Below, one piece after another: positions 3,561 through 48,518 of a stretch of 64,000 nt of DNA. Source of the DNA: an uncultured Planctomycetota bacterium. Lineage in GTDB: Bacteria; Planctomycetota; Planctomycetia; Isosphaerales; Isosphaeraceae. The position numbers and the translations under genes are program-made. The DNA is taken from positions 96,001-160,000 of the forward strand of contig CAWGMQ010000005.1 in the NCBI GenBank assembly GCA_963823665.1. The letters run 5' to 3'. The notes below the pieces were generated by a model, which saw only the letters and a program-made list of their open reading frames with translations, was not told the DNA's origin and made no database searches. Position 1 is the stretch's first letter, and each line of letters opens with the position of its first letter.

Positions 3561-3577
3561 AAAAGGTGTCAGGAACC
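3561..3577 (+). repeat. AAAAGGTGTCAGGAACC motif, possible remnant of a REP/MITE-like end
   Basis: Shares the GGTGTC core with the right end of the 140-bp elements; sits at the left edge of the accessory zone; no partner end visible. Confidence 0.35.
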
Positions 3578-3704
3578 GAAAATGGCTTTCCCGTCACGCG
3601 TCACTTGATGGATGCCAGCCCGCGAATACCCGGTACGCTCGCACAATCCGTGCATCAGGATCGCCGGCATGATCACGCGGCACGACGAGCATCCGCCCCA
3701 CCAC

Positions 3705-4511
3705 TCAGCGGCTGATCTTCAGGCTCGGCAACGCCCGCTGTAGTTCATTCACTCCGGCGTCGGTGACCTGCGTCGACATGAGATCGAGATCCGACAGTTT
3801 GGTCAGCCCGTGCAGGTGCGCCAGCCCGGCGTCGGTGACGTGAGTGCGAGTGAGGTTAAGTTCCGAGAGATCGGTCAGTCCCTTAAGCTGCTCCAGCCCG
3901 GCATCGGTGATTTGTGTACCACCAAGGCTGAGTGAGGTAAGGTGCTTCAGCGCCGTCAAATGCGCAAGTCCGGCGTCCGTGACCCGATTGCCGTCAAGGA
4001 AAAGAGCCGTGAGGTTTGTGAGGCCCTTCAGATACAACAGCCCAGCATCTCTGACCCGAGTGTCTCGGACGCAAAGGACCGAGAGGTTTGTCAGTCCCGT
4101 AAGCTGCGATAGCCCGGTGTCGCTCAGGGTAGAAGGGATGACAATACAATCCCAGGACGATTGATCGTGAAACAGAGCCTGTAGCCGGGTGAGACGTCCG
4201 ACCTGTGCGATCGCTGCATCGTCGGCTTCGCTTGGGGTGAGAAAGACAAACGTGACGTGATCGAAATAGTCGACCCCGATCAGATCGATGAGCCACCGTG
4301 GCCCCCAGGGTTTTCCCCCCGAAATCGACGCTCCGTTGTTCCACTCCCAGTCATAACCGACGTTGCCGCCGACTTTCTGGATCGCCGCCACCGCCTCACG
4401 CTGAATCCGAGCGTTGCGAACGAGCCAGCCAAGCCAAACACCGATCACAAGCACCAGAACGATCAGCCCCCGCACGCTGAAGCGCAGGAATCTTCGCCAG
4501 GGCCGCCGGAT
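3705..4511 (-). CDS. Leucine-rich repeat (RNI-like) protein with planctomycete RFSVRGL N-terminal anchor; native start apparently removed by repeat copy 1
   Basis: 24-aa repeats LxxLxLxxTxVTDAGLxxLxxLxx; RRPWRRFLRFSVRGLIVLVLVIG abuts the repeat. Confidence 0.85.
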   Translation of the reverse strand: MRRPWRRFLRFSVRGLIVLVLVIGVWLGWLVRNARIQREAVAAIQKVGGNVGYDWEWNNGASISGGKPWGPRWLIDLIGVDYFDHVTFVFLTPSEADDAAIAQVGRLTRLQALFHDQSSWDCIVIPSTLSDTGLSQLTGLTNLSVLCVRDTRVRDAGLLYLKGLTNLTALFLDGNRVTDAGLAHLTALKHLTSLSLGGTQITDAGLEQLKGLTDLSELNLTRTHVTDAGLAHLHGLTKLSDLDLMSTQVTDAGVNELQRALPSLKISR

Positions 4512-4690
4512 GGGAAGCAAGACACCCACCCTTTCGTCGTGAATCAAAGATGAAACCGTTCGGGGAAAGGCGCAGCCGGACACCCATTCTCTCCGAGTGA
4601 TCCATCCACGGCTGCCTCAAACTCGCCAAAACGCTGGGTGTCTTGAAACCTGGTGTCTTGAATCCCAAAACGCTGGGTGTCTTGAATCCC
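4512..4690 (+). mobile_element. ~140-bp TIR element, copy 1, with triplicated right end
   Basis: GGGAAGCAAGACACCCA at 4512; TGGGTGTCTTG at 4635-4645; extra right ends at 4651-4666 and 4667-4690. Confidence 0.85.
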
Positions 4691-5171
4691 TGCGCCGTCC
4701 AGCCGATCCGCTCGTCCTTCAACCGATGGACCCGGCCACGGGTCGCGAGGGGCTGCTCCCGCGCCGACTGTTCGAGCTCGCTGTCGGACAGCCCATCGAT
4801 CAGGCCAACTCCGAACAGTGGCGGAGTATTGCGTGCCGTCAACCGGAACCCCACGCGATTGCTCCCCAAGCCGTTCTCCACGTCCCGCTCGGTGGCCATG
4901 GTCTCCCTGTTCAGCTCCTCCATGGTCGGGTTCGGAAAACACTTGCTGGGCCTGTCCTCATATCGAATTCGGGGGCCGACAGTCGTGTGTCGGCGACCGG
5001 AGTGGCTGGTCGAGTCCATCGAGACGATTTTAGCCCTGATCGAGGCTGCCGAGACGCGAGCACTCGTGCGGCATCGAGAACGACCTGCCCCGCGGTTGTC
5101 AGACCGATCAGGCCCGCCAGCGCCCACCGCCAGGCGCGGGACGGTCGCACCGCCGGCGCCCGGACTCGCAT
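4691..5171 (-). pseudogene. Di-haem oxidoreductase family remnant, 3'-truncated at repeat copy 1
   Basis: RNTPPLFGVGLIDGLSD...GRVHRL...IGWTAQ runs directly into the repeat; signal-like N-terminus is in another frame; no CxxCH left. Confidence 0.65.
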
Positions 5172-5415
5172 CGGCGGCACACCGCGAGAAATCGCGCCCG
5201 TCACAGTCATACCTGAAGCCTTCATCGGGGAAGGAGTCCGCGTCCGACCGGTTCGTTGGCCTCTATTGAGGCATTCGTCCCCGGTCGCGGTTTTGTTCGA
5301 GGGACCTCCGGTGAAATGGGACTCAGGTCGGATCGACCGAATCAACTCCAGATCAATCGACTTCGGTATCGTCGGACCGAAGCGGACAGTCTCCGCTGCT
5401 ATCGGAACCCCAGCG

Positions 5416-6168
5416 TTACTTTTTTGCCTTGGCCTTCTCCCGCGCGGCGGCCTCGGCGAGGACCGACTCGGGGTCGTCGTTGAACGTGTCGCGGCAGCCG
5501 GTGCAGCAGACCCAGTAGGTCTTGCCCTTGTAGTTGACCTTGATCGTGCCGCGGCCCTCGGTAACGACGCAGAGCGGGTACGACTCGCCCGTGGCGAAGG
5601 CGACTCCCTCGCGGGTGTAGCCGACCTCGCCGAGCCGGGAGAAGGTGTGGAGCTCGGGGTCCTCGGCCTCCAGCAGGACGAGCAGGCGGGTGTCGTGCAG
5701 CGGGGTGATCGAGACCCGGCGCACTCCGCCGGCCGGGGCCTTGGCGTCGGCCGTCAGGACCAGCGGCTTCTTTTCCTCCGCCGCACCGGCGAAGGTGCGG
5801 GACGTGCCGTCGGCGAGGGTCGCCTTGAGGACGAACGTGCCGGGCGCCTTGCCCGCCCGAAGTACGCCCGACTTGAGGTACTTGCCCTTCTTGACCGTTA
5901 TCTCCAGTCCGGCCGAGTCGCTGGTGAGCTTCCAGGCCCAGACCGCCGACTCCATCCACGCCCCGCGCACCCGTCCCCGCTGGACCTGCCCGACCCCGCG
6001 CCACGAGCCCACGAGCGGGGCGTACGCCTTCAGCGCCTCCTGGTCGGCGCGCCGGGCCGGCGCGACCTTGTCCTTGTCGTCGACAGCCCGCACCGTGACC
6101 GCGGCCGCCGCCACGACCCCCAGCGCCGCCAACAGGCCGACGCCCGACGAAACCCTGGCCCTTCGCAT
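5416..6168 (-). CDS. Secreted protein with C-terminal YHS/TRASH-like metal-binding domain
   Basis: Signal peptide MRRARVSSGVGLLAALGVVAAAA; CVVTEG...YKGKTYWVCCTGCRDTFNDDPE. Confidence 0.8.
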   Translation of the reverse strand: MRRARVSSGVGLLAALGVVAAAAVTVRAVDDKDKVAPARRADQEALKAYAPLVGSWRGVGQVQRGRVRGAWMESAVWAWKLTSDSAGLEITVKKGKYLKSGVLRAGKAPGTFVLKATLADGTSRTFAGAAEEKKPLVLTADAKAPAGGVRRVSITPLHDTRLLVLLEAEDPELHTFSRLGEVGYTREGVAFATGESYPLCVVTEGRGTIKVNYKGKTYWVCCTGCRDTFNDDPESVLAEAAAREKAKAKK

Positions 6169-6267
6169 CGTGGACTCGCCCCCCTGAAGACTGACCCTCC
6201 CGTCGCCGACCCCGACCCCGACCATTGTAGGATGAAACCCCGCCCGGAAGCCATACTCTGTTTCGAT

Positions 6268-6414
6268 GGGAAGCAAGAAGCAAGACACCCACCCTTTCGT
6301 CGGGAATCAAAGATGAAACCGCGCGGGGAAAGGCGCAGCCGGACACCCATGCTCTCCGAGTGATCCATCCATGGCTGCCTCAAACTCGCCAAAACGCTGG
6401 GTGTCTTGGATCCC
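6268..6414 (+). mobile_element. ~140-bp TIR element, copy 2 (duplicated GAAGCAA at left end)
   Basis: CAAGACACCCA at 6281 to TGGGTGTCTTG at 6398-6408, 128-bp core. Confidence 0.85.
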
Positions 6415-6512
6415 TCTTTGATCAATCATCGTCAACAATCAAGAAGTTTGAGACAATGGGTGCTTGGCCTCCGATCAAAGGAAGATGGAGGCGGTGCCGC
6501 CAAGAGGTCGCG

Positions 6513-6956
6513 ATGAAAGTACCCCACTTCCGAATCGCCTCGATCATGGTGGTCGTCGCCATCGTCGCACTCAACCTCGTGGCGATTCGGGCTTTGCTTG
6601 GATTCCGTTCTCTAATGGGTGAATTGTTGATACTGAGTGCCCTGCCGATGGCGAACCTCTTGGCAGTCGGCCTGCTGATTGGTAGACGGCGTCCTGGGAA
6701 CCGTCCATTCCTCCTGGGCTTCGCGCCGTTCGGTGCGATGGCGCTCGCCCTTTACGTCGCCGTGACGACGTCTGTTCCTCGTGAGATTGTGGTATCCTGG
6801 CTGGCGCCGGTGAGCGACTACTTGGTGAGAATGATCGGGGCACATCGACCGTTGCTCTTCATCCGAGCCCTGACCTTCGCCTGTCTGCTCATACTGGTCT
6901 TGCCTCAAGTGATCTTCGCTCTGATCGGTGGCTTCCTATCCCGGAGATTCAAGTGA
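6513..6956 (+). CDS. Planctomycete-type small membrane protein
   Basis: MKVPHFRIASIMVVVAIVALNL, about 4 TM segments, GAGG RBS; paralog of 28521-29051. Confidence 0.75.
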   Translation: MKVPHFRIASIMVVVAIVALNLVAIRALLGFRSLMGELLILSALPMANLLAVGLLIGRRRPGNRPFLLGFAPFGAMALALYVAVTTSVPREIVVSWLAPVSDYLVRMIGAHRPLLFIRALTFACLLILVLPQVIFALIGGFLSRRFK

Positions 6957-6982
6957 GGAGGCAGACACTCGTCAGTCGCATG

Positions 6983-7122
6983 GGGAAGCAAGACATCCAC
7001 CCTTTCGTCGGGAATCAAAGATGAAACCGTGGGAGGAAAGGCGCAGCGGGACACCCATTCTCGTCGAGTGATCCGTCCATGGCTGCGTCAAACTCGCCAA
7101 AACGCTGCGTGTCTTGAATCCC
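6983..7122 (+). mobile_element. ~140-bp TIR element, copy 3 (simple ends, most diverged TIRs)
   Basis: GGGAAGCAAGACATCCA ... TGCGTGTCTTGAATCCC, exactly 140 bp. Confidence 0.85.
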
Positions 7123-7337
7123 CATCCCAATGGACAAGGACGTTTCATAGGGTACGCTATTTGTCTATGCCTTCCGATGGCCGCTCCCTCGGTCCGATTC
7201 CTGAGAACAGGCATCCAACGACGACTGACTGGAGGGCGTCGCCGCAAGAAGAACGCGCGAAGTCCGAGATCTGAGGGGAAGATGGTGGATTCAAATACTC
7301 CGGCGCCGGCCGCGAGTATGGCAGGTACGGGATCGAC

Positions 7338-8388
7338 ATGCGAAGACTCAAGGTCGACCTTCAAGACGTGGCGATCGCCTTTGAAGACCACGGTTCCGAG
7401 TTGAGCCACTACCTCGACATGCAGACCGGCCGGGTCGTTTCCGTCGGCGCAAACGACTTCTCGGAGATCGATGAAGACGACGATGTACTCCGGGAAGATG
7501 AGCTCCGAGAAGATGACTACGAAGGGCCCGAACTGCCTAGCGAGCCTGACTGGATTCGAGCCGAACATGCACTTCGCGCGGAAGTCTGCAATGGGCTGGG
7601 CACGCGGTACATTGAAATCCCCGCCGACGACCGTCGCGAAGCCTACCGCGACATGGAAGAGTTTGTTGACACCGTGCAGGACAGTCGCCTCCAGGCTTGG
7701 CTGGCACGCGACATCGTGGGCCGCGGCGCATTTCGCCGGTTCCAAGATAGGCTTTCCGGGGACTTTCACGAGCGACGCCGTTGGTTTGAATTCAAGAATG
7801 CGCGGCTGGAAGCGCGAATACGCGATTGGTTGGCGTCCGAGGAGATCGAGCCAATCGAAGATCCCCGCGATCAGGAGCGGGAAGAACAGCGGAAGGCCCA
7901 GGAGTTGGTCGATATTCGACTCGACCTGGTCGCCGCGGTCTTGGATTTCGTTGGTTCCGTGGCGCGGACTCCCGGGGGTGCTGCGGATCGCGCTCATCGG
8001 GTCCTTGACAACCGATCGGCTAGACCCGAAGGATGCCGACCTTCTCGTCACTGTGGCAGATGACGCCGGCCTTGGCGCGCTCGCCAAGTCTGCCCGTCGC
8101 ATGCAGGGTCGTGCGCAGAGTTCCAACCGCGGAGCCGATGTTTTTCTACTGGATCCGCGCGGACGCTATATCGGGCGCACGTGTCAGTGGAAAGACTGTG
8201 GTCCCGGAATTCGTCAGAGCTGCGACGCCCTCCATTGCGGCCAACGGCACTACCTTCACGATGACCTGGCCGCGGTCACTCTCCCGAGAGAGATCACAGA
8301 TTCCCCAGCCATCGAGCTATGGCCCGGGCTGGTCACCCGCGTGCCGGTTCCACAAGACCTCAAGGCGGGGCTAATCGACAAGTTGTGA
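7338..8388 (+). CDS. UPF0158-like domain fused (frameshift near 7975) to a Pol-beta-type nucleotidyltransferase-like domain with Cys/His tail
   Basis: YLDMQTGRV...AYRDMEEFV...GRGAFRRFQD...W; then IALIGSLTTDRLDPKDADLLV and CxxxxCxPGIRxxCDALHCGxRHYLHDD. Confidence 0.7.
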
Positions 8389-8439
8389 TCGTCGTCCTCT
8401 CTCTTTTGTCGCTAGCTGATTCGAAAGGTCGTTTCATCC

Positions 8440-8736
8440 ATGAACCAGTCACCTGAACTCACGCCGGCCGAGCAAGTTCATGCTGGCCTTTACCGAGACC
8501 CGTCGCAGCTTTTCAAACGGGCGCTAGGTCGCAAGCTTTCCTTCATCATCCCGTCGCTCGTGCTCATGATTGTCTGGCTTTTCACGCGTGAGCTCCCCTA
8601 CGTCATTCTCGGTTATGGGATCTTGCTTTACGAAGAGGTGCTTGGAATCTTCTTGGCCAAGAGAGGCATTCAGACCACCAATCAAGTCCTCACGAGATAT
8701 CAGCAAAAGGTCCCAAATCAAGCAGACGCTCCCTGA
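8440..8736 (+). CDS. Small hypothetical membrane protein
   Basis: 98-aa ATG ORF with two TM segments, ending 33 bp before repeat copy 4. Confidence 0.6.
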   Translation: MNQSPELTPAEQVHAGLYRDPSQLFKRALGRKLSFIIPSLVLMIVWLFTRELPYVILGYGILLYEEVLGIFLAKRGIQTTNQVLTRYQQKVPNQADAP

Positions 8737-8769
8737 CAGGGCGATCCCGATTTCTGCATCTACAACGAG

Positions 8770-8939
8770 GGGAAGCAGGAAGCAAGACACCCATCCGTTC
8801 GTCGGGAATAAAAGATGAAACCGTCCGGGAAAAGCGCATCCGGACACTCATTCTCTCCGAGTGATCCATCCATGGCTGCCTCAAACTCGCCAAAACGCTG
8901 GGTGTCTTGAATCCCAAAACTCTGGGTGTCTTGAAACCC
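8770..8939 (+). mobile_element. ~140-bp TIR element, copy 4 (both ends duplicated)
   Basis: GGGAAGCAGGAAGCAAGACACCCA; TGGGTGTCTTG at 8899-8909; second right end AAAACTCTGGGTGTCTTGAAACCC at 8916-8939. Confidence 0.85.
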
Positions 8940-8991
8940 ATCTGACCTATGGATGCTGCAGAAAATTCCCGGCCGGAGTTCAACTGAAAGC

Positions 8992-9545
8992 CTAAGCCAG
9001 TGATAGCTTGAACAACTCTTGCGCCACTGCGTGACGCCCTAGAACAACATGCGTCGCACGCTCGCCCGCGACGTGCTCCGTACAGGTGTATCCGAGCTTG
9101 ACGAGATCAATTTCGCCAAGGAAGCGTTCGCCCGAGCCGAGGAGCACCGGGCATATCGCCAGATTCAGCTCATCGATCAGTCCGGCGCGAAGATACTGCT
9201 GATCGGTGGCGACGCCGCCTCCGATACAAACGTCTTTCCCATTCGCGGCCGCTGTGGCTCTCTCGAGGGCGCGGTGGATTCCATCCGTCATGAAATGGAA
9301 CGTCGTTCCTCCCTGCATCGGGATCGATTCGCGCGGGTAGTGGGTCAGCACGAACACGGGGCTGCGAAACGGCGGCGTCTCTCCCCACCCGCCCTTCCAG
9401 GAGTTGTCAGGCCACGGCCCTCGAACGGGTCCGAGCATGTTTCTGCCGAAGATGTAGGCGCCCACGTTCAGGAACCTCCGAGCGAAGAAGTCATCGTCGA
9501 TCCCGGTCGTTCCTGCGTCCTTGCCGTGAATGGGCTGGAACGTCC
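8992..9545 (-). pseudogene. Dihydrofolate reductase/RibD C-terminal family gene, 5'-truncated
   Basis: IFGRNMLGP, PVFVLTH, DVCIGGG, LIDELNLAICPVLLGSGERF; the usual N-terminal SLDG strand is missing. Confidence 0.75.
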
Positions 9546-10064
9546 ACTCCTTGCGTACTTGGTTGAGGTATGGCAACTGGAGCGGGATCTGGAAGCAGGC
9601 CGGGGCGACCCGAGCACGGCTGGGTTGCGCGACCGTCCGTCGGCGCTCCCCAAACCGCCGCCCGGGGCGGCACCTTGTGCCGCAGATAGCATCAATTCTC
9701 TTCGCTAATCGATTCCGCCGCTGGAACCCGGAAAGTCTCTTGAAATTTCCCAGTTGACGGCGTGTCGAATCCGTAAAGTCGTCGCATAATCTATGTCAGG
9801 CGGACCGCTGTGTCGCGATGCGCTGCGGCCTGGCAGGGCCGACTCGATGCGTCGCGTTCTGGAGGCGCACCCAACGCCCCGAAGGTTTTGTTGCCGAGGG
9901 ATGTGTTCCAGCGGGCTGGAAGTCCCTGGGTATTGACCTGCGCACCGTTGGGGCGGGGCATGGCGGGGGCGAGGCCGCCCGGAGTCGTCGGCCCTACGGT
10001 GACTGCACCAGGCCCTGAGGAGTGGGCCGGATTTGGGCTGCGGCTGGGTTGTCGGAGGCGAAAT

Positions 10065-10157
10065 GAGATTAACATTAAGATTCGGATCAGGATTAAGATT
10101 ATGATCAAAATTAACGGTAAAACTACGATCAGGATTGGGATCTGGAGGAAGATCAGG
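10065..10157 (+). repeat. Degenerate 6-bp periodic tract (AAGATT/AGGATC-like)
   Basis: gagatt aacatt aagatt cggatc aggatt aagatt atgatc aaaatt ... Confidence 0.7.
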
Positions 10158-10167
10158 GCGCGGCCGG

Positions 10168-10389
10168 TTTACACTAGTGTACGGATGCTGGAAGGCCCCC
10201 GTAATATTGCCACTTTTTGCCATTTTTTCGATGGGATCGACGATTGCTTCGGGTGCAGTGGCTGCTCTGCAAGTTCAATGGGCATAATCGAATGGGAACA
10301 GAGCGAAGGCGTTCTTCGGCAATGGCAAAACCACTTGGCACGTGCCACGAAAAATTGCCAAAACAAATCGATGGTCTTGTTCACTATGT
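10168..10389 (+). repeat. Three-block non-coding element, copy A
   Basis: Blocks at 10168-10230, 10334-10360 and 10378-10389 match the reverse complement of 35325-35544. Confidence 0.8.
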
Positions 10390-10593: not shown

Positions 10594-10704
10594 TTTCCTG
10601 CGTCACACTCAACTCGTTCTGGCATAACGGGTTCTGGCTTGTCCGAGCGCGCTCCAATTTCCTGCGTCACACCTAAGTCCAAGCCCTGCAAGGACGTGAC
10701 GCAG
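10594..10704. repeat. Two TTTCCTGCGTCACAC direct repeats, each followed by an 8-7-8 dyad
   Basis: Repeats at 10594 and 10658; AACTCGTT-N7-AACGGGTT at 10611-10633; AAGTCCAA-N7-AAGGACGT at 10675-10697. Confidence 0.6.
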
Positions 10705-10937
10705 TGACGAAGGCCTGGCCCACTTGTGTGCGCGGGCGGCGGGTTTTCAATGGTCTGACGGGGAGGGATGAGGCGAGGGTTCGTTCCCTTAAAGTGGCCC
10801 GTTGGCGCGCCCGAAGTCGGATTGTCGCTTCCGTCCAATCATGGTACACATCCAGCGCTCGAGCACCGGTGCCCACGCGAGAGCCCGGTGACGCATGGAG
10901 GCTCTCGGGTAATCCCCTCCGCGATATCCCCTCCCAC

Positions 10938-13190
10938 ATGACGAATTTCGTTCGCTTGGTCCAATTCGCGTGGCGCTATCGGGTCCGCTTCGGGCTGTCG
11001 ATCGGCTGCGCCGCCATGGTGGCCTTGCTGTTCTTCACCGAGCTAGGGGCCGTCTATCCCCTGTTGCACATTCTTTTTGACAGCCAAAATCCGAAGCGCT
11101 GGGTATCCGAAAAAATTGTCTCGATCGAGGATGAGATCGTCATTCTCGATGCACGCGCGGTGGAAGCCAATATTGCGTTTCAAGTTATGCATGGCGGCGA
11201 GCGCGTTCACGACTTGCTCAAGGAGCGTCTGGAAACGCTACGCAACGATCATAAATCGAAGGCGGATGTACTCGAAGCGCGTGAGCACCAGCTCGGTCTC
11301 ACGGAGATCAACGAGACGATCGGTGAGTCTCGGCGGCCCGAGATGGTCGAGCTCGATGGACTGCGCCACGCCGTGCGCCTGGCCGACTGGCGGCTCAAGG
11401 AGTTACGCGAATGCCGGCGGCTGCTGGATAGAGACGGCAGCGCCGGGCTTTCGCGCCGACTGCGCGACATTGCGCAGGAGAAGGCCGATCGAGCCCGAGT
11501 GCTCGCGCGGTTACCAGCGTCGCTCAGCCGTACATCAATCGCTATCTGCCCGACGAGCCCTACACGAGTTTGCTGCTCTTGATGGGGCTTGTGATGGTTG
11601 GCGTGGCCTTCAAGGGCTTCTTCATGTTTCTGCAGGAGACGCTCGTCGCATCGGTCATGCAGCTCACGCTTTTTGACATCCGCAACGTGTTCTTTCGGCG
11701 CACGATCAACCTGGATCTTGCGAGCTTTTCGGACCAGGGCTCTTCGGAGCTGATGACCCGCTTCACGAATGACATGGACTCATTCGGTCAGGGGCTCAAT
11801 ACCTTGATGAGCAAGGTGATCCGGGAACCGCTTCGATTCGCAAGCTGTTTGGGCGGAGCACTTTGGTTCAACTGGCGGCTCACGTGCTTGACCCTGATTC
11901 TGGTGCCGATCTCTGGAGCTACGACCTACCGCGTGGGCAGGATCATGAAGCGGGCGGTGAGGCGGTCGCTCGAGAGTATGTCGACGATCTACAAGATCCT
12001 CCAGGAGAGCTTCCAGGGCATCAAGGTGATCAAGGCGTTCTGCACCGAGCGGGTCGAGCGCAGGCGGTTCTTCGGCGAGACCAAGAACCTGTACAAGAAG
12101 AGCGTGCGAGTGGCGATGATCGACGCGATGAGCGACCCGGTTCTCGAGATGCTGACGCTGCTCGACGGTGGTCATCGCTCTGCTGGCTGGCTCGTATCTG
12201 GTCCTCAACCACACGATCTACCTTGAATCTCGGATTGTTCCGGCTTGCAGCTTGCCGCCGAGCCGATGGCGATCCAGGACTTGCTCACGCTTTACACCAT
12301 GCTGGCGGCGGCGGCCGACCCGATTCGAAAGCTGGCGAACGTGCACTCGAAGATCCAGCGGGCTGCGGCGGCGGCGGACCGGATCTGTGCGCTGATGGAC
12401 CGGCGGCCCAAGGTTGCGGAAAACAAGCGCGGACCGCGGCTGCCGCGGCATCGGCATAGCATCGAGATTGACGAACGTGACCTTCGGCTACCGGAACGCA
12501 GTGCCCGTCGTGTCTGGTATCAACCTTACCGTCCGGCACGGGGAAACGATCGCGCTGGTGGGCCCCAACGGCTGCGGCAAGACCACCCTCATGAACCTTG
12601 TGCCGCGGTTCTGGGACGTCGACTCGGGGGCCATTCGAATCGACGGCCACGACATCCGGGACATCCAGCTCCGGAGTCTGCGCACCCAGATCGGCATGGT
12701 GATTCAGGAAACGATCCTGTTTCAGGACACGATCGCCAACAACATCGCGTACGGTTTCACGCATGCCAGCCGAGCCGACGTCGAGCGGGCGGCCGAGCGG
12801 GCTTACGCCCACCAGTTCATCACGGCGCTGCCGCGGGGATACGACACGTTGATCGGCGAACGCGGCTACGGACTCTCCGGGGGTCAGCGGCAGCGAATCG
12901 CGCTGGCGCGGGCCATGCTGCGCGATCCGGCCATCCTGATTCTCGACGAGGCGACGAGCGCCGTTGATATTCAGGACGAGGTGCTGATTCGCAAAGCGAT
13001 CGAGGAATTCACCAAAGGCCGCACGACGTTTCTGATCTCCCACAGCCTGGCGTCGATCCAGGTTGCGGATCGCATCGTGCTGCTGGACGGTGGCCGGATC
13101 GAGGCGATCGGCACCGACATCGAGCTCAAGCGCACATCGGCCCTCTATCGCCGACTGCACGAAATTCACTACCACCGCGAGACGGCGTGA
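10938..13190 (+). CDS. ABC exporter, fused permease/ATPase (MsbA-like); several frameshifts
   Basis: TM domain across frames; GPNGCGKT, LSGGQRQRIALARA, ILILDEATS, ISH. Confidence 0.9.
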
Positions 13191-13635: not shown

Positions 13636-15307
13636 ATGATTTCCATGGAAACACGGCAGGCGCGATTCGCTCCGGCGAGTGGCGGTGCGATCAAGTGGGT
13701 CGCGGTTGGGTATGCGGTTGTCGTCGCGGCTGCTCTTTCGAGCGGCATGCTGGCGCGTGGTGGTGACGACTCGACGAAAACGAGCCGCAAGGAGATTGGG
13801 TCGAATTCCGCTTTCATCGACAAGTTGATCGAGGACGGATGGAAGAAGGCGGGAGTGAAGCCGGGGAAGGTGGCCTCGGACGAAGAATTCATGCGCCGCG
13901 TGTACGTTGACATGCTGGGCCGAATTCCGAACGTGCAAGAGGCCCGGGCGTTTCTGGGGACGAAGGAATCGGGCAAGCGGGCGAAGCTGATCGAGTATCT
14001 CCTCGAGCATCCCGACTTCGGCAACAATTTCGCGACTCAGTGGACGATCTTGCTGATCGGTCGCGGCAATCAGGGCATGATGGTTGACCGGGGAGCACTG
14101 TCGAGCTGGCTGCGAAAGCAGTTTGCTACTGATCGGCCGTGGAACGAGGTGGTGCGGGAGCTGGTGTCGGCGAAGGGATCGAACAAGGAGAACGGGGCGG
14201 TCAATTACGTCCTGGCCCATCTCGAGTTTGATGCTGTGCCGCTCACGTCGCGAACGACCCGGCTATTTCTCGGGCAGCAGGTCCAATGCACGCAGTGCCA
14301 TGACCACCCGTCGAACGACTGGAAACAAGGCGATTTTTGGGGGATCAACGCGTTCTTCAAGGGGATCAAAGCGGAGCGCGTGACGGCCCCCAGCGCAACT
14401 GGCCAGGAGGCGTATGACCACACCGACGTGAGCGACATGCCCACGGATACCTACGCGCGGTTTGACCGCCGCGACGGGATGGTGGGAATTGCGTTCCCGC
14501 GGTTCCTGGATGGTCGCAAGATCAGTCAGGGGGAGGATGTCGATCGCCGTGTCGAGCTCGCAAAACTGATCGCCGACCCGGATAACCAGGCGATGGCCAA
14601 GGCCTTCGTCAACCGAACGTGGGCCCACTTCCTCGGGCGAGGCTTCGTGGAGCCGGTTGATGACTTCGGACCTCACAATCCCCCGAGTAATCCGGAGCTG
14701 CTGGACCAGATCGCGAAGGAGTTCAAGGAGAGCGGGTACAGCCTCAAGAAGCTGTGCCGATGGATCACGAACTCGCGCCCGTATCAGCTCAGCTAGCGTG
14801 AAAGTTCGCCCTTCGGACAAAGAGGAGGGTCTTTTCTGCCAGATGCAGACCAAGCCCATGACCCCCGAGCAGTTCTTCGATTCGCTGGTCACGGCGACGA
14901 GGGCTCATCGGTCCGGCGTCGGCGGTGCCGAGGAGAACAAGAAGCGCGATGCTTGGCTCAGACAGTTCCTCTTCACGTTCGCCAACGACGAAGCCGAGGA
15001 GTCGACGAATTTCCAGGGCACGATCCCGCAGGCGCTCATGATGATGAACGGCCAAATGATGCAAGAAGCCCTTTCCGGTAAGCCGGGGAGCTTCCTCGGA
15101 GAGATATGTGAACAGGCTGGAAACTCGAGATCTCCTGCGGCATTCATGGTTGATTCGATCTATCTGGCGGCGCTCAGCCGGCATCCGAATGGCAAGGAGG
15201 TCACACAGGCGAAGGAGTACTTCGACTCGTACCCGGATAGTCTTCAGATCTTGCAGGATTTGTTCTGGGCACTGCTGAACTCGAATGAGTTTGTCCTGGT
15301 TCATTGA
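13636..15307 (+). CDS. DUF1549/DUF1553 protein (frameshift near 14790)
   Basis: DEEFMRRVYVDMLGRIP, CTQCHDHP, VNRTWAHFLGRGFVEPVDD, DLFWALLNSNEF. Confidence 0.9.
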
Positions 15308-15392
15308 AGTTTCACCCGGCATGCCGGCCGGCACATCGCGACTTTGCGAGGTGCGTGGGCCGCGCAAGCACCTTGGGCAAAGAGGGGATCCC

Positions 15393-16680
15393 ATGTCAGA
15401 GACTTCGCGATTTCTTGGCGGGATGACGCGGCGGCACTGGATGGGGCATCTTGCTTCCACGGCGCTGGGGATTCCGGCGATCCAGTTCTTCTCGTCGCTT
15501 GACGCCTCGGCCCAGCAGCTTCGCAAGACCAACCGGAGCTGCATCGTGCTCTGGATGGGGGGAGGCCCGAGCCATCTCGACATCTGGGACTTGAAGCCCG
15601 ACAGCGAGAAGAACGCCGGCGAGTTCAGACCGATTGACACCTCGGCGCCGGGCGTGAAGATCACGCAGCACCTGCCCAAGGTCGCCAAGCAGATGCATCA
15701 CCTGAACATCATTCGATCGCTGGATTCCAAGGAAGGCAACCACGACCGCGGCACGTACATGATGCACACCGGGATACACGCCCAACCCGACGGTTGTGCA
15801 CCCGGGCTTCGGATCATACTGCGCGGTCGAGCTGGGCGAGAAGCTGCAGAACTTCGACCTCCCGCACTGCGTTGCGATCAATTCGCCCAGCGTGGCTGCG
15901 GGGTTCCTGGGAATGTCGTACGCTCCGTTCGTCGTGCAAAACCCGAACGCGCCGATCGCCAATCTCAAGCCCGCGGCCGACGTCAACGATCTGAGGATGC
16001 GGCGGCGGCTGCATATGCTGGCGGGCGTGGAGAGGCAATTTGCGGTGACGCGTGCCAGCCAGTCGGCCGTCGATCACAAGGCGGTGTACGAGAAGACTCT
16101 TCGCATGATGACTTCGCAGCATCAAGACAGCTTCAACCTTGAGCGGGAGCCGGCCGATGTGCGCGACAAGTACGGGCGCGGCTCATTTGGCTCGGGCTGT
16201 CTCATGGCCCGGCGGCTGGTCGAGCGCGGTGTGACGTACGTGGAGGTTTCGCTGGACGGCTGGGACACGCACGCCAATAACTTCACGACGCTCTCGAATC
16301 GGCTCCTCCCCGAACTGGACAAGGGGATGTCGTCCCTCGTCGCTGACCTGGCCGAGCGCCGGCTGCTCGACACCACGACAATCGTCTGGATGGGTGAATT
16401 TGGCCGCACTCCCCGGATCAATCAGAACGCCGGCCGCGATCACTGGCCGCGGAGCTGGTCGGTTGTCGTGGGTGGCGGCGGCATGAAGGGGGGTCAAGTT
16501 GTCGGCGCGACCGACAAAGACGGAATCGAGGTCGTCGACCGTCCGGTCGGGGTGATGGACTTGATCGCCACCATGACGAAGGGCATGGGAATCAACGTCG
16601 CCACTCAGTTCACGACCCCGCGCGGCCGGCCGATCAAGATCGTAGACGGCGGCAAGCCGATCCAGGAGCTGTTTGGTTGA
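15393..16680 (+). CDS. DUF1501 family protein (frameshift near 15775)
   Basis: MTRRHW Tat-like motif, WMGGGPSHLDIWDLKP, GWDTH, MGEFGRTP, GRDHW. Confidence 0.9.
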
Positions 16681-35324: not shown

Positions 35325-35544
35325 ACATAGTGAACAGCCACGGAGACGGAAACTGGCAATCTTGCGTGGCATATGCCAAGGCACTTTTCGCGCGCCGAAA
35401 ACCGCGAACTTAGGTTCCGATCCTTGTACGTGAATTGGAGTTCCGGCTGACTAGCTCCGCGTGGCACGACCGATCGCCGACCCGAAAAGTGGCAAAAAGT
35501 GGCAATATCTAGAGGGCCTTCCAGCATCCGTACACCAGTGTAAA
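35325..35544 (-). repeat. Three-block non-coding element, copy B (inverted relative to copy A)
   Basis: Reverse complement matches 10168-10389 in three blocks with near-identical spacing. Confidence 0.8.
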
Positions 35545-35750
35545 TTGGCAGTGCTGAGAGGTGGTACGTGGCCGTCGGCCGTCTTGCTTCGTCCATTGTT
35601 CCAAACGAACGATAAACGCGGCGCAACGCCGCTGCCGAGACCATCGAGTTCACCGCTCCCACATCTGGATCGAAATGCCAGAAGCGAGCGCAAACGCAAG
35701 TCGACACGACACACTTTCACGACATCCTCCGCTCATCGACGCGAGCTTTA

Positions 35751-35816: not shown

Positions 35817-37015
35817 CGGATACGGCCACGCTTCCCCAAAAACTGGTACGACATGGTACTGGATGGTACGAATTTCAAAGAATCCTCCTCCCTCCCAATC
35901 GCGTTTCTCAGCCCGCCGCAAGGCTTTGCGTTGCGCACCCGAGGCGAGCGGGCAAGCTGGTGGTCACACGGGCGAACAACGAGGACCGTATTGCGATCCC
36001 AAAGCCAGTGAGATCGAGATTTGAGCCACGGACGGACCAACCAGCACGCTCGTCCCGGCAACCCGCAGCCTCGCGACGCCGACCAGCCCAGCCCGGTCCC
36101 GCGCCTGCGACGCACTTCCCCCCTTCATTATATGTGCGACCGGTTTGCGGCCCCGACAACATTTCGTGCCTAGTTTTTCATTCGACAAGAAACGCAAAGT
36201 CAAGCGAGCAAAAGAATTAACCGCTGCTCTCATTTCGCTCTGTTGTGCCCGTTCAACGCGCATTGAAAACGGCCCAGCGGAACATTCTTGATCGCAAGAA
36301 AACAACACAAACGCCCCGCCCTCATGAGGCGGCCATGCCGGGTCGGTTCAACTCCGTCTCGCGTTCCGGACTCATTCTACCGCGCGCCGATCCCGTCCAA
36401 TGGCCTGTGCGAGCTCCGGAGATAGCGACAGCGGCCGAGCCGAGCTCCTCCGGCGGTCGGTTGCTTCGACGACGGCCTCCGCTGCTACTCTTGCGGATCA
36501 CTGGGACGGAATAGCCGATACGGCGACGTCGTTCCCATGCGCCGTTTTGATCACATCGAGAATGGCCGGGGCCCGCGTTAACCTCCGTGAGGTTCCAGCC
36601 CATGGAACTCCAAGCGTCAAACCCATCGTCACCAGCGTCTTCGAGTCCCCAGAACACTTCCCTCGCTACTGAATTCCCCCGCGCTCCGCGTGAGGACCCA
36701 GACATCCACCCTCTGCTGTCGGTCCCGCGGAAAGGCACACGCACTCGACTCGCACCGGTTTGCGTCCCGCGATCGCTGGGTACCTCGCGGCCGACGCCGC
36801 ACACAGCACGCGCTTTGCCGCGCACGGTCAGCAACCGGATGCGCTCGGCTACGTCGCCGGCGTTTTGCACGCGTCGGTTGCTGCGAACCGCTCGATATCG
36901 ACGGCCGTGCTTCGTCGCTTGCCGCGCCAGCGAAGGAAACGACTCAGGTTGGCGTCGAATCCAATCGAATTCCGCGTACACCGCTGCGACCAGCGCTTGC
37001 GAGCGGGCCGCTTAC

Positions 37016-38233
37016 TTACAGAAACGCGACCTGCGCGGCCGCCTTGCCCTGAAACCAGCGCCGTGAGCAACGCGGCGCAGCGTGCACAAGCGAACTCGCT
37101 CGACCCGCCGCTTGCTTGAACATGCGACCGAAGTCGCGCACCGTGTCCACCCAATTCGATCGATCCACTCCCAGTCGGTCCAGGATGGGCGCCAGGTCTT
37201 CAGGAATTACCCCACGCTTGTCCCGCCGCAGTTCCCGGCCCGTCCAATCGAGCAGCATGGCATACTTTCTGGTCTCGATCGGCAGAAACCCTTGATCCGA
37301 CGCCCGCGCAGGGAGCGGCCGTTTTGACGCCGCCCGGACTGGCACGGTCGAGAACCGCGGCAGAAGAGCCTGCCGGTGCCCGACGCCCCGACACATCGAC
37401 ATCGTCACTCGCGATTCGTTCACGCGGCGCAACCGTTTCCGACGGTGCAGCCAATGAGCTTTCGGCCTGGGCCGTTCTGTGAACGACATCGGTCTCCCGC
37501 AATGTCAGTTCGCACAACCATCCATCCGGGCGATCAAAAATTTCGGGCGAGCTTTCCTCGCGCGATGTATGCAACCCACCCGGAGTTCCGGCGAGGCCCA
37601 GAATGCGGTTACACCCCGACGTGAAATGCGATTCCTCCGGCGTACGGGCGATTCCCGCCCGAATCGGGTTGAGATCGACATAGACGCTGCATGCCAAAAG
37701 CGCCGCCTCATCGAGAAGCGGCTGTGACTTGAAGCGCCCGGCCCAGAATCTGCCGGCCGAGCCTTCATCGCGATTGGCCGCTCGGGCAACCCATTCGCAC
37801 AAACTCATCATGAACCACGACAGACTCGACAACCGCCCGCGCAGCGCCGCCATCCTGCCAGCGTCGGCCATGAGCATTGCCAGGTCGTTGTCGTCGGGCT
37901 CCGCCGGCTCGCCGGTAAGCTCGTCACGTTGCGGAAAGAGCCTGCGCAGCGCAGTGCGACTTCGGCGTCGGACCACTGCTCCACGCTGTCAGGTCGATTG
38001 CGGAGCACGAGATGCAGGTGGTTGCTCATAATGGCATAACCGCACACTAGAGCGCCGAAGAGTCCGGCGAGGGCGCGTAGCCGATCGAGAATCCAGGCCT
38101 TACGGTGAGAGTAATCACGACCGGAGTAAGAGTCGGTGCCGCACAGGAAAGCTCTTCGGACGCACCGAGCAATGCAGTGATAAACGCCCACGCACTCTTC
38201 GTGGACGATGTAGCGGCGAGCAGAGGCCGGCAC
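37016..38233 (-). mobile_element. HUH/Y1 tyrosine transposase (IS200/IS605 superfamily, long RAYT-like form), frameshifted
   Basis: YHCIARCVRRAFLCG, YAIMSNHLHLVLR (HUH), FWAGRFKSQ, YVDLNPIRAG (catalytic Tyr), LLDWTGR. Confidence 0.85.
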
Positions 38234-38513
38234 GTAAGGCTCCATCACCAGGCAGGAACTCCTCCGATCTCCGGGTGTTCCTCCAAAACGTCGGTGGTCC
38301 CACCAGCCGGCTCACGCCGGCTGCAAATCGCCCGAACGCTACTTCCTCATGTACAATATGCGTCGACTTTGCAGATTCGTCGCGCGGTAGACACCCGCAG
38401 CGCGTGAAGGGTTAATATCCTGAGAAAGCCGAGCGGCACTTCTGAAGGCTGGGCGACGAGCCGGCCTGCTGTGGGCAGCACTCCGCTATGTCTACCTGAT
38501 TCGATGGAGCACC

Positions 38514-41609: not shown

Positions 41610-42713
41610 TCAGAGCTGACCGCTGTCGAAAGCCTCGTTGCCGTCCGGAGTTGCGATCGCATACCAAGGCTGCCAGTTCACGCTGGTCTTGACGAACCGC
41701 ACCGAGCCGTCCATGAACAGGACGTTTACACCGCCCGGGTGGTTCGAGCTGGCGTTTTCCAGCGTGACGGTGGCGCGGCTATCGACGTTTGCGTCGGAAT
41801 ACTCGCAGCAGTAGCGATTCGGCAGGTTCGTGTGCGAGTAAATCTGGCTCGGCCCCCACATCCACCACTCGCCCTTATAGCTCGAGGCTTGATTGGCATT
41901 AATCGGCTGGACCGTGGCACAGGATTGAGCGAACTGAAGATCGGTGGGGAACGCGCCGGTTTGCGCTTGACCGGGCAGGTAGTAGACCATGCCCAGGCCG
42001 TTCGTGTCCGGACTGCCATGTGCAGGGCCTTTCACCCATTCACTGAAGATCGCGGTGCCGCTCGTTCCGTCTGTGAAATTGTTCGTCCCGATCATACGCT
42101 GGCCGATGCCGTCCCAGGTGGACAGAATATAGTTCGGTCCGTTCATCTGCCAGTTGAAGCAGACACCGCCGCCGTTGATGCGCCTGTTCTGGCCGATGTT
42201 TGACGGGTAGTTGCTGGCCCCGGTGATCGAGGTTGTCTGGCTTACAAAATTGTTGGGGGTTGTTCCGCCTTTGTTGTTGTCGGACGGGCAGATGAAGTAC
42301 GGAATCTGCATGACGACCACGGTACCGTTCGGCATCTCGTTCTGGATCTGAGAACCGCCGGGGTCATTCCAGCGCGCGCCGAAGGCATGGTTCCACGCGT
42401 TGTACGCGGCCGTTTGTTCCATGTACGGCAGCAGCCGGAGCTTCTGCGAGTAGTTCTGGTGTGGTTGTTGAAGCGCCGTGGTGCTGTTGGGCAACCAGGC
42501 TTGATCAACCGAGACGGGCGGCAAGAGAGTCATTGCCGTCACGTAATTGTTCATCGCGAGGCCGATCTGCTTCAAGTTATTGGTGCACTGCGCCCGCCGT
42601 GCGGCTTCGCGCGCCGCCTGGACCGCGGGCAACAGCAGCGCGATCAAGACCGCGATGATGGCGATCACCACGAGCAGCTCGATCAATGTAAAACCCCGAC
42701 GTCTCTGGATCAT
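41610..42713 (-). CDS. DUF1559 prepilin-like protein, copy 1
   Basis: [54 protein letters not shown] (H-X9-DG). Confidence 0.95.
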
Positions 42714-43373
42714 TGCCGGATTCCCTGTGTTAAGCCAGTAGAACCGAAAAAAAGACAACGGCGTGCACAAATCGCGTTCCGATCGACAAAGCGGTGAATT
42801 GTGGACGAACCCCCCAGCCAACCCGGCGCGCGCACCGAACGCCCGCTCGTTCTCAGAGCGATCAAAACGATCCCCTAATTGTTTAGGCGTCGTTTCTCTG
42901 AAGGCTGTCCGGAGAATCTGCAATGACGAACGACTCGAAGAACTGCGTCGCTGGTTGACTGCCGGCATATCGAGCCACGCCTGCGCGTGGATCGGTGGGA
43001 CTCAACGACCCGAATGGCCCCACCGCAGTTCGTCTGACGTTCGAGACTCCTTGCGCCGCGGCGGCATTCTAAATGAAGTAATTAGGACTAAAAATTTAGG
43101 ATAGCCGAACCTTCACGCCACTGTCAACCAGTTGTGGAGCAACAACGTATGCGAAGTTGTGGTGCTGCGGCTGCGGTACAGTGCGACTTTACTCGAGTAC
43201 CCTGTCGTTGTGCGCCGAATCGGCGATCAACAGCGATCGGCCGAGCGGGGCAGGAGAGAAGACGGCAAACGCTCCGAATGACGGACAGTTTGCGCTCAGA
43301 GAGTGCGCGAAGTAAGGAACAGGCCGGAAATAACTTCCCGATTTCGGTCTCAATCCTACCACGACGGAAAGCC

Positions 43374-43400
43374 CTCGTTCCGACGCTCTGCGTCGGAACG
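43374..43400. repeat. REP-like palindrome
   Basis: CGTTCCGACGC-TCT-GCGTCGGAACG perfect 11-bp stem. Confidence 0.7.
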
Positions 43401-43608
43401 GTCTTTGTGCCGCTCCGCGGCGCACTTCACGTAAATCGACGGAATTTGGTTCCGGCCCGTTCCTAAGCGCCAGCGGACCGGGCGCGAACCGCGAGCCCGA
43501 CGTTCAACAAAGACGAAACACCCCCACGCCCTCCGTCGCCCGAAAAGGGAGACGGAGGAGGGAGGGTGTAAAACCGAGTTCGGGTCGATTGCGTGAGCCC
43601 AACGGGAC

Positions 43609-44704
43609 TCAGAGCTGGCCTGAGTCGAAAGCCTCGTTGCCGTCAGGAGTCGAGATCGCATACCAAGGCTGCCAGTTCACGCTGGTCTTGACGAACCGCA
43701 CCGAGCCGTCCATGAACAGCACGTTCACACCACCCGGGTGGTTCGAGCTGGCGTTCTGCAGTGTGACGGTGGCGCGGCCATCGACGTTTGCGTCGGAATA
43801 CTCACAGCAATACCGATTCGGGAGGTTCGTATGCGAGTAAATCTGGCTCGGCCCCCACATCCACCACTCGCCCTTCCAGCTCTGGGCTTGATTGCCATTA
43901 ATGGGTTGAACCGTAGCACAGGCCTGAGCGAACTGAAGATCGGTCGGGAACGCCCCGGTACCCGCTTGACCGGGCAGGTAGTAGACCATGCCCAACCCGT
44001 TCGTGTCCGGACTGCCATGCGCGGGGCCTTTCACCCATTCGCTGAAGATCGCGGTGCCGCTCGTTCCGTCTGTGAAATTGTTCGTCCCGATCATACGCCC
44101 GCCGATGCCGTCCCAAGTCGACAGGATGTAATTCGGCCCGTTCATCTGCCAGTTGAAGCAAACTCCACCGCCGTTGATGCGCCTGTTCTGGCCGATGTTT
44201 GACGGGTAATTACTGCACCCAGAAATCTGGGTTGAGACGGCTGAGAACTGGTTCGGCTGTGATCCGCCTTTGTTGTTGTCGGACGGGCAGAGGAAGTACG
44301 GAATCACCATGATGACCACGGTGCCGTTCGGCATCTCGTTCTGGATCTGGTTCACGTCGGTCCAGCGGGCGCCGAAGGCATGATTCCAGGCATTGTATGC
44401 CGCAGTCTGTTCCATGTAAGGCAACAGCCGCAGCTTCTGCGAGTAGTTCTGATGCGGTTGTTGAAGCGCCGTGCCATTGGGCTGCCACGCTTGATCAACC
44501 GCGACAGGCGGCAAAAGCGTGAACGACGTCACGTAATTGTTCATCGCGAGACCGATTTGCTTCAGGTTGTTCGTACATTGGCCCGCGCCTCGCGGCCTCG
44601 CGCGCCGCCTGCACGGCAGGCAATAACAGTGCGATCAACACTGCGATGATGGCGATCACCACCAGCAGTTCGATCAACGTAAAACCCCGACTTCTTCGGA
44701 TCAT
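43609..44704 (-). CDS. DUF1559 prepilin-like protein, copy 2 (frameshift near 44585)
   Basis: Same motifs as copy 1; near-identical protein. Confidence 0.95.
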
Positions 44705-44837
44705 TTTGGAATTCCCTGTATGAGACCGTTCGAATCGAAAAAAACACCGGCGAACACTGGCCACGTTCTCGTCGTAAAACAATCAATCAAAGGTCGGGAA
44801 GCGTCCTGCACCCCGCCCGATGGACAGACTCCAACCG

Positions 44838-45089: not shown

Positions 45090-46057
45090 GGCTGTCGATC
45101 TCCTGTCGCAAAACAATGAGATGAAGAACTGCGCTAAACCCGCTGCGCTGCGACCGAACGATCACACGCACAGTCTCACAGCGAAAAGACCCTTCTACTT
45201 ATCGGCTACGACCCATCGCTCGACCAACACCTTCGCCCGTCAACGCTTCGCGGTTGTACGTCCGACCCCGCCAGTGTCGTTCATCCCCTTCGCAGGCACT
45301 GACCAGCAGAACCCCACCGCAAGTCGCCTGACATTCGGAGTTAATCGTGCCTCCGGCGCCTCATAACCGGAAAAGTGAAGAATCTGCGGAGAGAATACGC
45401 GAACGGTCTCGGCGGTGTCAACAAAAATCTCAATCTTTTGATATCTCCTATTTCTTTAGTAGTACAAGTGGGTTCTACAGACGTACGTGGAGAGCAGTTT
45501 TTCGTCATATCGGAGCGGCGTGCTCACACCCTCCCGCGGGCCACCGGACACTCAGTGATAACCCGGAACAGAACGCAGTTGATCGCCTCGGTCGCCCCGC
45601 CAATTTCGTTCTACGAACAAGCGAGCGAGAATTGTGCGGCCATCAGGGTGAATGCCCATCGAAGTGATATCCGCACCTTGCCCGGGTGATGGCTTGGCAC
45701 CGCGAGCGAAGGCTCGCCGGCAAGTTGGGAATCACGCGGCGAAGCAGCCCCGATGCGGCGTACGCGCGTTTCCGCGCGGCAAACATGTTGTAAAGATATG
45801 TAAACTGAATTGGCGGTGTTCCGATCTGGATTATCATCGTGTGAAAAATACAGCAAATGGTTTGAAAATAAGGGCTTAGAGATTGTCGACTCACGTTCAT
45901 GGACAGCTTCGATGCGAATGACGCCTAAACCATTTAGTACTGCCGATTATGCATTGCCGAGCAGTGGTCGCGCGAATTTGCATCACGGTCAATCGTGGAT
46001 CTGCGCGTCTTCTCGTCCAATGCGAGACTCGATCAACACGCGAAGGAATAGTCTCGG

Positions 46058-48090: not shown

Positions 48091-48324
48091 CACGCCAGAT
48101 CCACGACGATCCGGCTTCGGCCTTCGCGCGCGGGAAGGTGGCGCATCCACTCACCTTGGGCCGGGATGTTGACAATTACGTCGGGGCGATGAGACACTCA
48201 CTGAAGAGATGTTGGCGACACTGAGCGCCGCGCTCGCGCCGGGCGGTTTCCATCCTTTGTAAGAATCCGCGGAAATCTGTCAGATTGGGCTCGATCCGGG
48301 CGATCCGGACCCGAAGGAGATTCC

Positions 48325-48492
48325 GTGCAGAGTTTTCCGGCAGTGTTCGCGTATTTCGGCCCGGAAGTGCAGTTGCCGGTGCTATCGTTCATCGCGGCGG
48401 TGTCGGGCCTTGTGTTGACGATCGGCGGTGCACCCATCCGAGCGATCAAGCGATGGCTCAGTGCACGCAGAGCGAGGAAGACGCTCTCGTAG
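48325..48492 (+). CDS. 55-aa small membrane protein, absent from the ORF track
   Basis: GAAGGAGA RBS, GTG start; MQSFPAVFAYFGPEVQLPVLSFIAAVSGLVLTIGGAPIRAIKRWLSARRARKTLS. Confidence 0.7.
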   Translation: MQSFPAVFAYFGPEVQLPVLSFIAAVSGLVLTIGGAPIRAIKRWLSARRARKTLS

Positions 48493-48518
48493 ATCAACCT
48501 TTGAAGGAACAGTCTCGG

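Follow-up and report, generated by a model that had tools for sequence, protein, structure and literature searches.

The 64-kb window analysed here (64,000 nt from an uncultured planctomycete of the Isosphaeraceae) carries four co-oriented copies of a 138-bp element separated by unrelated DNA, and sequence comparison with relatives indicates that those ends of this element that could be checked are joints of formerly non-adjacent DNA. The element is very probably a non-autonomous derivative, reduced to its terminal inverted repeats (TIRs), of a ~1.65-1.8-kb element encoding a TnpA-Y1 transposase of subclass 2.3. What is new, judged from the alignments, is evidence, precise to the base, for joints at the ends and for the passage of a flank from one copy to another. 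The four copies are arranged as follows.

4512..4690, + strand: element copy 1; core at 4512-4651, right TIR reiterated twice at 4652-4690
6268..6414, + strand: element copy 2; left tip reiterated at 6268-6276, joint with the relatives' homology at 6267
6983..7122, + strand: element copy 3, the most diverged copy; no relative is informative at either end
8770..8939, + strand: element copy 4; tips reiterated at both ends (8770-8778 and 8916-8939)

All four copies lie on the + strand at the starts reported in an earlier note on this DNA (4512, 6268, 6983 and 8770); they are 90-96% alike over ~138 bp with gaps allowed, and a search of the window yielded no further one. When the left TIR, GGGAAGCAAGACACCCA, is set against the right end in reverse complement, 2 of 17 positions differ, which bears out the imperfect 17-bp repeats (15/17) described in that note, and the internal GGACACYCAT echo it mentioned is present in the alignment of the copies. 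Its remark that the GTTRRRY core is missing also holds, as neither GTTRRRY nor RYYYAAC occurs inside any of the four copies. In copies 1, 2 and 4 the element's own tips are repeated in tandem (stutters). The two TIRs are predicted to pair on single-stranded DNA in an 11-bp stem; the ends pair with each other, not within themselves, and the alignment shows no GTAG foot. Relative to shuffled sequences, folding of the whole element was modestly better for this family, termed family A (z -1.8 to -3.2), and not better for its sister family B, described below. The absence of target-site duplications (TSDs) was likewise confirmed: the longest flanking direct repeats of 32 intron-free elements from both families measured 0 (14 elements), 2 (9), 3 (7) or 4 nt (2), without excess over randomly paired flanks. 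The internal echo (window 4570-4650 spans it to the right end) resembles the TIR variant of loci L144/L145 and of family C, and the element may therefore consist of two left ends, one nested with the other. In the relative G073 (L081, L084, L089) a repeated element of greater length (~500 bp) has the same GGGTGTCTTGAAACCC tip, with a stutter.

The same TIR bounds genes of an HUH transposase family, of which a damaged member lies in the window, 28 kb from the array.

37016..38245, - strand: frameshifted subclass-2.3 TnpA-Y1 (HUH) gene, left TIR lost; member of the candidate cognate family
36690..36712, - strand: right TIR of this transposase element, with the GGGTGGATGTCT core and the polarity of the mini-element TIRs

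The 11-nt TIR core AGACACCCAYC occurs at 160 sites in the window's genome (G000; 16.5 Mb, 92% complete) versus 2 for a control, and a search of 12 genomes with part of the window HUH gene returned 17 matches in G000, 24 in G001, 23 in G068 and 15 in G072. The left 21 nt of the mini-element agree with the right TIR of locus L162 at 20 of 21 positions, and its right end agrees with L153 at 17 of 18. Among 19 long-clade (~410-aa) Y1 loci in five genomes, the left TIR was found at 13, the right at 17 and both at 11, in the same polarity, and the motif appeared in 0% of control windows; L154, which has both TIRs, stands outside this count owing to a coordinate offset. The autonomous elements are ~1.65-1.8 kb long, TIR-bounded and encode the subclass-2.3 TnpA-Y1; pairs of them are 95.3% (L151/L162) and 99.7% (L147/L154) identical, their homology stops at the TIRs and their ends stutter likewise. 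By these alignments the TIR-bounded units appear to be mobile; a search for an empty site beside L157 matched another multi-copy element. The earlier note had guessed at an HUH enzyme from the missing TSDs and had proposed looking for an enzyme gene bounded by the same TIR; the subclass-2.3 loci are such genes.

The transposase has the motifs NHLH, YVDLNP and TS with an HUH-Y distance of ~112, and H75/H77, Y188 and T208-S209 are conserved in at least 90% of 95 homologues. Its structural model (predicted local distance difference test score 86.4) retrieved TnpA-REP 4ER8 as the best Foldseek match (E=5e-4), followed by ISDra2/IS608 TnpA; the NCBIfam model REP_Tyr_transpos matched at E=2.9e-8, under its cut-off, there was no Pfam hit, and a sequence search of the PDB gave only transposase matches at E 0.3-0.9. 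Motifs and modelled fold thus place the protein, by prediction, in TnpA-Y1 subclass 2.3 with an HUH/Y1 fold. The family comprises 1,120 protein clusters at E<=1e-30. At five gammaproteobacterial homologue loci the TIR core was found at both ends of two, one end of two and neither end of one; the Pseudoalteromonas homologue has it as a perfect 15-bp inverted repeat, and it also occurs at the Aeromonas homologue. It was absent at the ~355-aa sub-clade (0/6 loci), and most homologues from distant phyla are without it, often having related GGACA-type inverted ends instead. Two other origins were rejected. The idea that the element is a C-terminal remnant of a subclass-2.1 RAYT gene, which arose from a look-alike antisense peptide and bioRxiv 10.1101/2020.03.09.984088, failed on tail-profile scores (with a profile built from 27 RAYT tails, scores were 17-25 for 16 copies, a mean of 20 with a maximum of 38 for shuffles, and >100 for true tails); subclass-2.1 TIRtrons as the cognate were ruled out by TIRs differing in sequence and polarity.

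Searches of G000 revealed at least 21 family A matches among the best 40 of 44 candidates scored, 16 of them near-full and 5 right-end-only; two on contig C9 were dropped because C9 duplicates the start of C3, which leaves at least 19 distinct copies or fragments. (C9:1-7555 repeats C3:1-7544 at 96.9%, perhaps as a strain variant in the bin.) The 19 fall into clusters on C5 (4), C3 (7), C8 (3) and C4 (2), with three singles on C6, so that the genome-wide search suggested by the earlier note returned four clusters, co-oriented beyond chance, and not the scattered, randomly oriented copies with empty-site alleles that it had set against its own proposal. The exact element family is narrow, since only 3 of 40 relatives matched: two of the same family with clear copies and one weakly. 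A scan of a genome contig collection with 21-22-nt end patterns yielded one uncultured Isosphaeraceae record with two right-half copies and one chance match within a gene. Gene content, DUF1501 for example, is also planctomycete-like. For sister family B (135 bp, same TIR) the matches number at least 45 in G000 and at least 48 in G001, from lists in which 40 of 113 and 40 of 73 candidates, respectively, were scored.

Neighbours within 15 kb, counted after stutters <300 bp apart had been merged, were co-oriented in 12 of 12 cases for family A, 20 of 21 for family B in G000 and 17 of 19 for family B in G001, the random expectation for such close pairs being 0.3-1.4; distant family B neighbours were co-oriented in 6 of 10 (G000) and 8 of 15 (G001), and orientation is therefore a local property. 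One family B array holds nine copies in 28 kb, eight in the same direction. Strand bias followed by later inversions could yield the same pattern; GC skew was uninformative for leading and lagging strand, the coding strand dominating, so replication bias was examined only through the orientation of far pairs. Evidence of local copying in family B was weak in G000 (P=0.04; 9 of 27 nearest neighbours in the same cluster) and strong in G001 (P=0.0006; 13/14, in only 3 clusters). No tRNA anchor was found near the arrays.

Breakpoints were found at element tips. At nine ends on eight copies, which are those with a relative found and not a random sample, homology to relatives stops at the tip or a few bases from it, and the relative's continuation, sought in the 17-64-kb locus, was recovered in 0 of 10 tests (one of them, in family B, weak in that the boundary varies among relatives); empty sites with contiguous flanks were found for 0 of 8 testable copies. 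For the YHS gene and its leader, homology with five relatives reaches window base 6267; beyond it the five have a different continuation in common, at the point where copy 2 stands in the window. To the left of copy 1, a leucine-rich repeat (LRR) gene has lost its start to the element, and to the right a multihaem gene is cut by it; the isolated copy at 1127 kb on C6 joins a G073-type gene end to the 3′ half of a trehalose-phosphatase gene that is intact in G072; on C4, the DNA that follows a copy begins with the final 77 codons of a PNKP ligase domain; and an oxygenase gene is cut by a family B copy. Several joints display 2-4 nt of GGG/CCC or tip-like microhomology, as judged by eye, and one 335-bp contig from soil sequencing runs contains a whole element between other flanks. 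Because homology ends at the TIR, the relatives' continuation is absent and one flank adjoins two unlike copies, the elements appear to act as joints, as the earlier note had proposed.

That flank, 141 bp long, occurs in G000 only twice, next to the left TIR of a C3 copy and of a C4 copy. The segment differs by 4 mismatches (97% identical) and its two element copies by 21 of 140 (85% alike; Fisher P=3e-4); as the flank is far more alike than the copies, it was attached to a different copy by exchange at the TIR, not co-duplicated. Likewise, 308 bp of flank plus left TIR recur 5 kb away at 94% in G008, and a unit of element plus antitoxin (90%, 868 bp) stands in different arrays of G000 and G001. 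The exchanged flank and the shared units would fit, by analogy, the route of IS26-type translocatable units.

The TIR is also the homing site of a group II intron, as 21 of 21 intron 5′ ends in the 33 stretches examined follow GGGTGTCT. This intron matches Rfam group-II-D1D4-6 and encodes, where complete, an RVT_1 protein of 424 aa; many copies are ~750-bp forms without an open reading frame, 98-100% alike. Introns in G008 have also inserted at the internal echo. A second, 2.5-kb group II intron (RVT_N/GIIM/HNH, 564 aa) is 99% identical in six places, nested in the TIR-homing intron; its 3′ end at L025 and L264 adjoins an element lacking its first ~11 bases.

L029:8461, L264:6026/15197/17645, L274, L275, L255, L256, L259 and L272: sites of the TIR-homing intron in G000
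L025:8154-10656, L029:10396-12896, L264, L274, L256 and L259: sites of the second intron

The genes between and beside the window copies are listed below.

3705..4511, - strand: LRR-repeat gene; first ~7 codons replaced by copy 1, frame open into the element
4691..5320, - strand: multihaem gene fragment, internally deleted and cut at the right end of copy 1; no Pfam hit, and presumably di-haem oxidoreductase-like
5416..6168, - strand: YHS-domain gene, intact
6513..6956, + strand: gene of a 147-aa membrane protein, intact, in an interval of 56.7% GC; stop 26 bp before copy 3
7338..8388, + strand: UPF0158-family gene split over two frames (7338-8063 and 7471-8388), possibly by sequencing error
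8440..8736, + strand: gene of a 98-aa membrane protein; stop 33 bp before copy 4
8992..9576, - strand: RibD_C-family gene that follows copy 4 on its right; homology to relatives ends at 89 bp from the element

The earlier note had described the intervals as filled with unrelated genes packed against the elements; its stop distances before copies 3 and 4 hold, while the genes are not all whole, those flanking copy 1 being truncated and the first interval a mosaic. The natural N-terminus of the LRR gene shows up in all four soil runs, as loose ends at 4501-4506; in-frame GTG codons for the truncated gene are supplied by the element (window 4512-4583), a possible fusion start. Orthologues of the YHS gene in eight relatives are 88-96% identical, and 0 of 8 are flanked by this element. 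In G001 (L066, L069, C6) the YHS gene stands 16 kb before the multihaem gene and in the window (4691-6267) the two are adjacent in reversed order, a difference that a circular permutation would explain.

Elsewhere in the window, single frameshifts split genes at 7338-8388, 10704-13190, 15285-16680 and 37016-38245 (long-read errors or pseudogenes), and a solo terminal repeat of a subclass-2.1-type TIRtron, of the type flanking L037, lies at 3563-3586, 950 bp left of copy 1. An AT-rich degenerate short tandem repeat at 10060-10140 precedes a 70-nt sequence (10158-10227) with an inverted 86% copy 25 kb off, at 35485-35554, and two stretches, 41610-44752 and 46031-50508, hold paralogues duplicated in tandem (period ~2.0 and ~2.46 kb; 70-91% alike). 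Repeats were also observed near other Y1 genes and elements of G000: at L046:900-1380 (G000:C10) an array of 36-bp repeats, resembling a CRISPR, ends directly upstream of a shorter-clade subclass-2.3-like Y1 gene; arrays of Acido-Lenti-1 REP-like repeats lie between two C8 element copies (L025:7730-7950); and repeats similar to these precede a short IS200-type Y1 gene at L036.

Taken as a whole, the account we lean towards, with some reserve, is one of TIRtron-like mini-elements, one-ended joining by an HUH enzyme and IS26-like direct arrays. The transposase would use the mini-element ends in trans on single-stranded DNA, on which the two TIRs would pair into the 11-bp stem; it would cleave close to a tip and attach this one end to new DNA, frequently at a short GGG/CCC-like or tip-like sequence, including the tip of another element. 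Such one-ended joins would produce tip stutters, adjacent deletions and circles of one element with neighbouring DNA, and the circles would re-enter at an existing copy, through the transposase or through RecA acting across 138 bp, which would give direct-repeat arrays with arbitrary cargo, as with IS26 translocatable units. The window array is then best read as an old product of such joining, since its copies are only ~90% alike, rather than as a cassette library read from a promoter. A bolder proposal, which we offer tentatively and hold to be less likely than its converse, is that subclass-2.3 HUH enzymes run IS26-like shuffling through 135-140-bp non-coding TIR elements, with one-ended joining, circles, RecA-independent docking at existing copies and hotspot arrays in giant planctomycete genomes; if true, this would be a single-strand, tyrosine-based capture system apart from integrons, ISCR and IS26, with an end-specialised group II intron.

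Several results weigh against array building by the transposase. Local copying is not demonstrated for family A, whose copies are no more alike within clusters than between them (0.903 vs 0.897, P=0.22), and both of its distant pairs are also co-oriented (2/2). At three ends homology stops 37, 63 and 89 bp from the tip, and the intervals contain joints without any element, so the region has also been rearranged by other means. BLASTN of the mini-element interior against 26 Y1 loci gave matches of TIR length only, with no parent found, and neither a circle nor an informative skip was seen in the contigs of the four soil runs (contigs only, best share 0.17). The incomplete family B lists and the selection of ends noted above belong on the same side.

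The serious rival is a passive hotspot, in which simple insertions of a Y1 mini-element, locally in one orientation owing to lagging-strand use by the enzyme, were followed by RecA recombination between direct copies, ordinary deletions and large inversions that gave the unrelated flanks and disordered orientation over long range; the elements would then mark joints in an array that the transposase did not build, and we consider it rather unlikely that this explains the array. TSDs are documented to go missing through recombination between identical insertion sequences and through adjacent deletions (PMC11708052), Y1 enzymes are documented to use the lagging strand (PMC6006769), and dimers or clusters of TIRs are known for TIRtrons (PMC3733652); the copies are old, the regions that house them abound in fragments and other joints, and RecA could also make the flank swap. 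However, no clean insertion exists among the eight testable copies, the isolated C6 copy included, the exchange point of the flank is at the left TIR and the element body is mismatched throughout, the tip stutters point to repeated reactions at tips, and orientation flips between clusters 60 kb apart. Far less probable, and the least probable of all the explanations considered, is a classical MITE (a miniature transposable element with inverted repeats) of a DDE insertion sequence, its TSDs having disappeared through adjacent deletions: GGG-ending TIRs, a length of ~140 bp and joints like those of adjacent deletions fit MITEs generally, but every coding element found with this TIR encodes an HUH Y1 (in a non-exhaustive search of DDE families), and neither the 32 elements nor the eight testable copies gave the TSDs or empty sites of such insertions.

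The earlier note had taken the array for an integron-like series of captured DNA, assembled by a non-integron mechanism. In a true integron-like cassette system the elements would be comparable to attC sites, and single genes would be captured, excised and reordered as defined units. The direct orientation of the sites speaks for this idea, as do the intact genes of intervals 2 and 3 that end 26-33 bp before an element, the varying GC of the intervals (56.7-67.8%), toxin-antitoxin genes between sister elements and the group II intron at the TIR; some group II introns home to attC sites. Yet the cargo does not behave as cassettes, because element ends interrupt genes within the reading frame (LRR, trehalose-phosphatase, PNKP ligase, oxygenase), cargo genes face both ways and intervals include element-free joints; relatives' orthologues of the cargo are without such an element, attC cores are lacking, no sigma-70-type promoter was found in window 4400-9100, and 0 of 18 matches to the integron integrase model TIGR02249 in the 92% complete genome exceeded its cut-off, none of them near the arrays. 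We therefore regard an integron-like system as very improbable.

Among known systems, the enzyme resembles TnpA-Y1 subclass 2.3 as defined in the available text of Quentin et al. 2018 (PMC6006769) in NHxH, YVDLNP, TS, long HUH-Y spacing (criterion ~110 aa) and a multi-copy, insertion sequence-like distribution. In the part available, subclass-2.3 genes are reported without REP-like structures, and neither a TIR nor a mini-element is named for them, whereas the present family has defined TIRs, two non-autonomous families and direct arrays, and a protein of 408 aa against a median of 325 there. TIRtrons and TIRYTs (Di Nocera et al. 2013, PMC3733652, available part) share a Y1 gene between TIRs that are also dispersed as dimers and clusters; here, too, the TIRs of the Y1 gene form a repeat family. 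Unlike the TIRs of GGGGWSAS type that this family has at its subclass-2.1 genes, however, the core AGACACCCA points inward with the G-run outermost, in the opposite polarity, and in place of the inward GGGGWSAS of most TIRYTs the core GGGTGTCT reads outward; 0 of 26 TIRYTs were placed in subclass 2.3 (PMC6006769, available part), and the joining of unrelated flanks is not described in the available part of PMC3733652. Our literature search, with subscription journals mostly outside it, found no description of subclass-2.3 TIRs, their mini-elements or arrays.

REPINs with RAYT (REPtrons) are similar in being non-autonomous inverted pairs with a ~100-bp spacer, without TSDs and with an HUH enzyme that here, too, would act in trans, and TnpA-REP 4ER8 is the closest solved structure; in contrast, our elements lack palindromic REPs with a GTAG/GTGG foot, their single ends are not hairpins, and the transposase is multi-copy and mobile, not single-copy. 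Integron arrays (attC/IntI) share direct-repeat sites, heterogeneous cargo and sites targeted by a group II intron, but here there are no attC cores and no IntI over cut-off, the cargo is not made of single co-oriented genes, and genes are truncated at the sites. IS26 translocatable units and pseudo-compound transposons (Harmer et al. 2014, PMC4196232, available part) share with the present elements direct arrays, arbitrary segments in between, no new TSD and an apparent targeting of existing copies. IS26 is, however, an autonomous DDE element that needs intact transposase genes in both copies (same source) and has targeted conservative integration as its feature, whereas the targeting here is only apparent and the 138-bp element is non-coding and tied to an HUH enzyme, with no IS6-family DDE transposase as cognate.

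What the many TnpA-Y1 subclasses outside the IS200/IS605 and REP systems do becomes directly testable for subclass 2.3, which was published with neither ends nor substrates known: the locus offers a defined end sequence, two natural mini-substrates and intact enzymes, together with products that are base-precise (joints, stutters and flank exchange). Should the enzyme build the arrays, HUH transposases would reshuffle arbitrary DNA like IS26, which would help to explain the patchwork gene order of 10-16-Mb soil planctomycete genomes. By analogy with these systems, the element seems closest by descent to TIRtrons and subclass 2.3, and appears to work like IS26 arrays.

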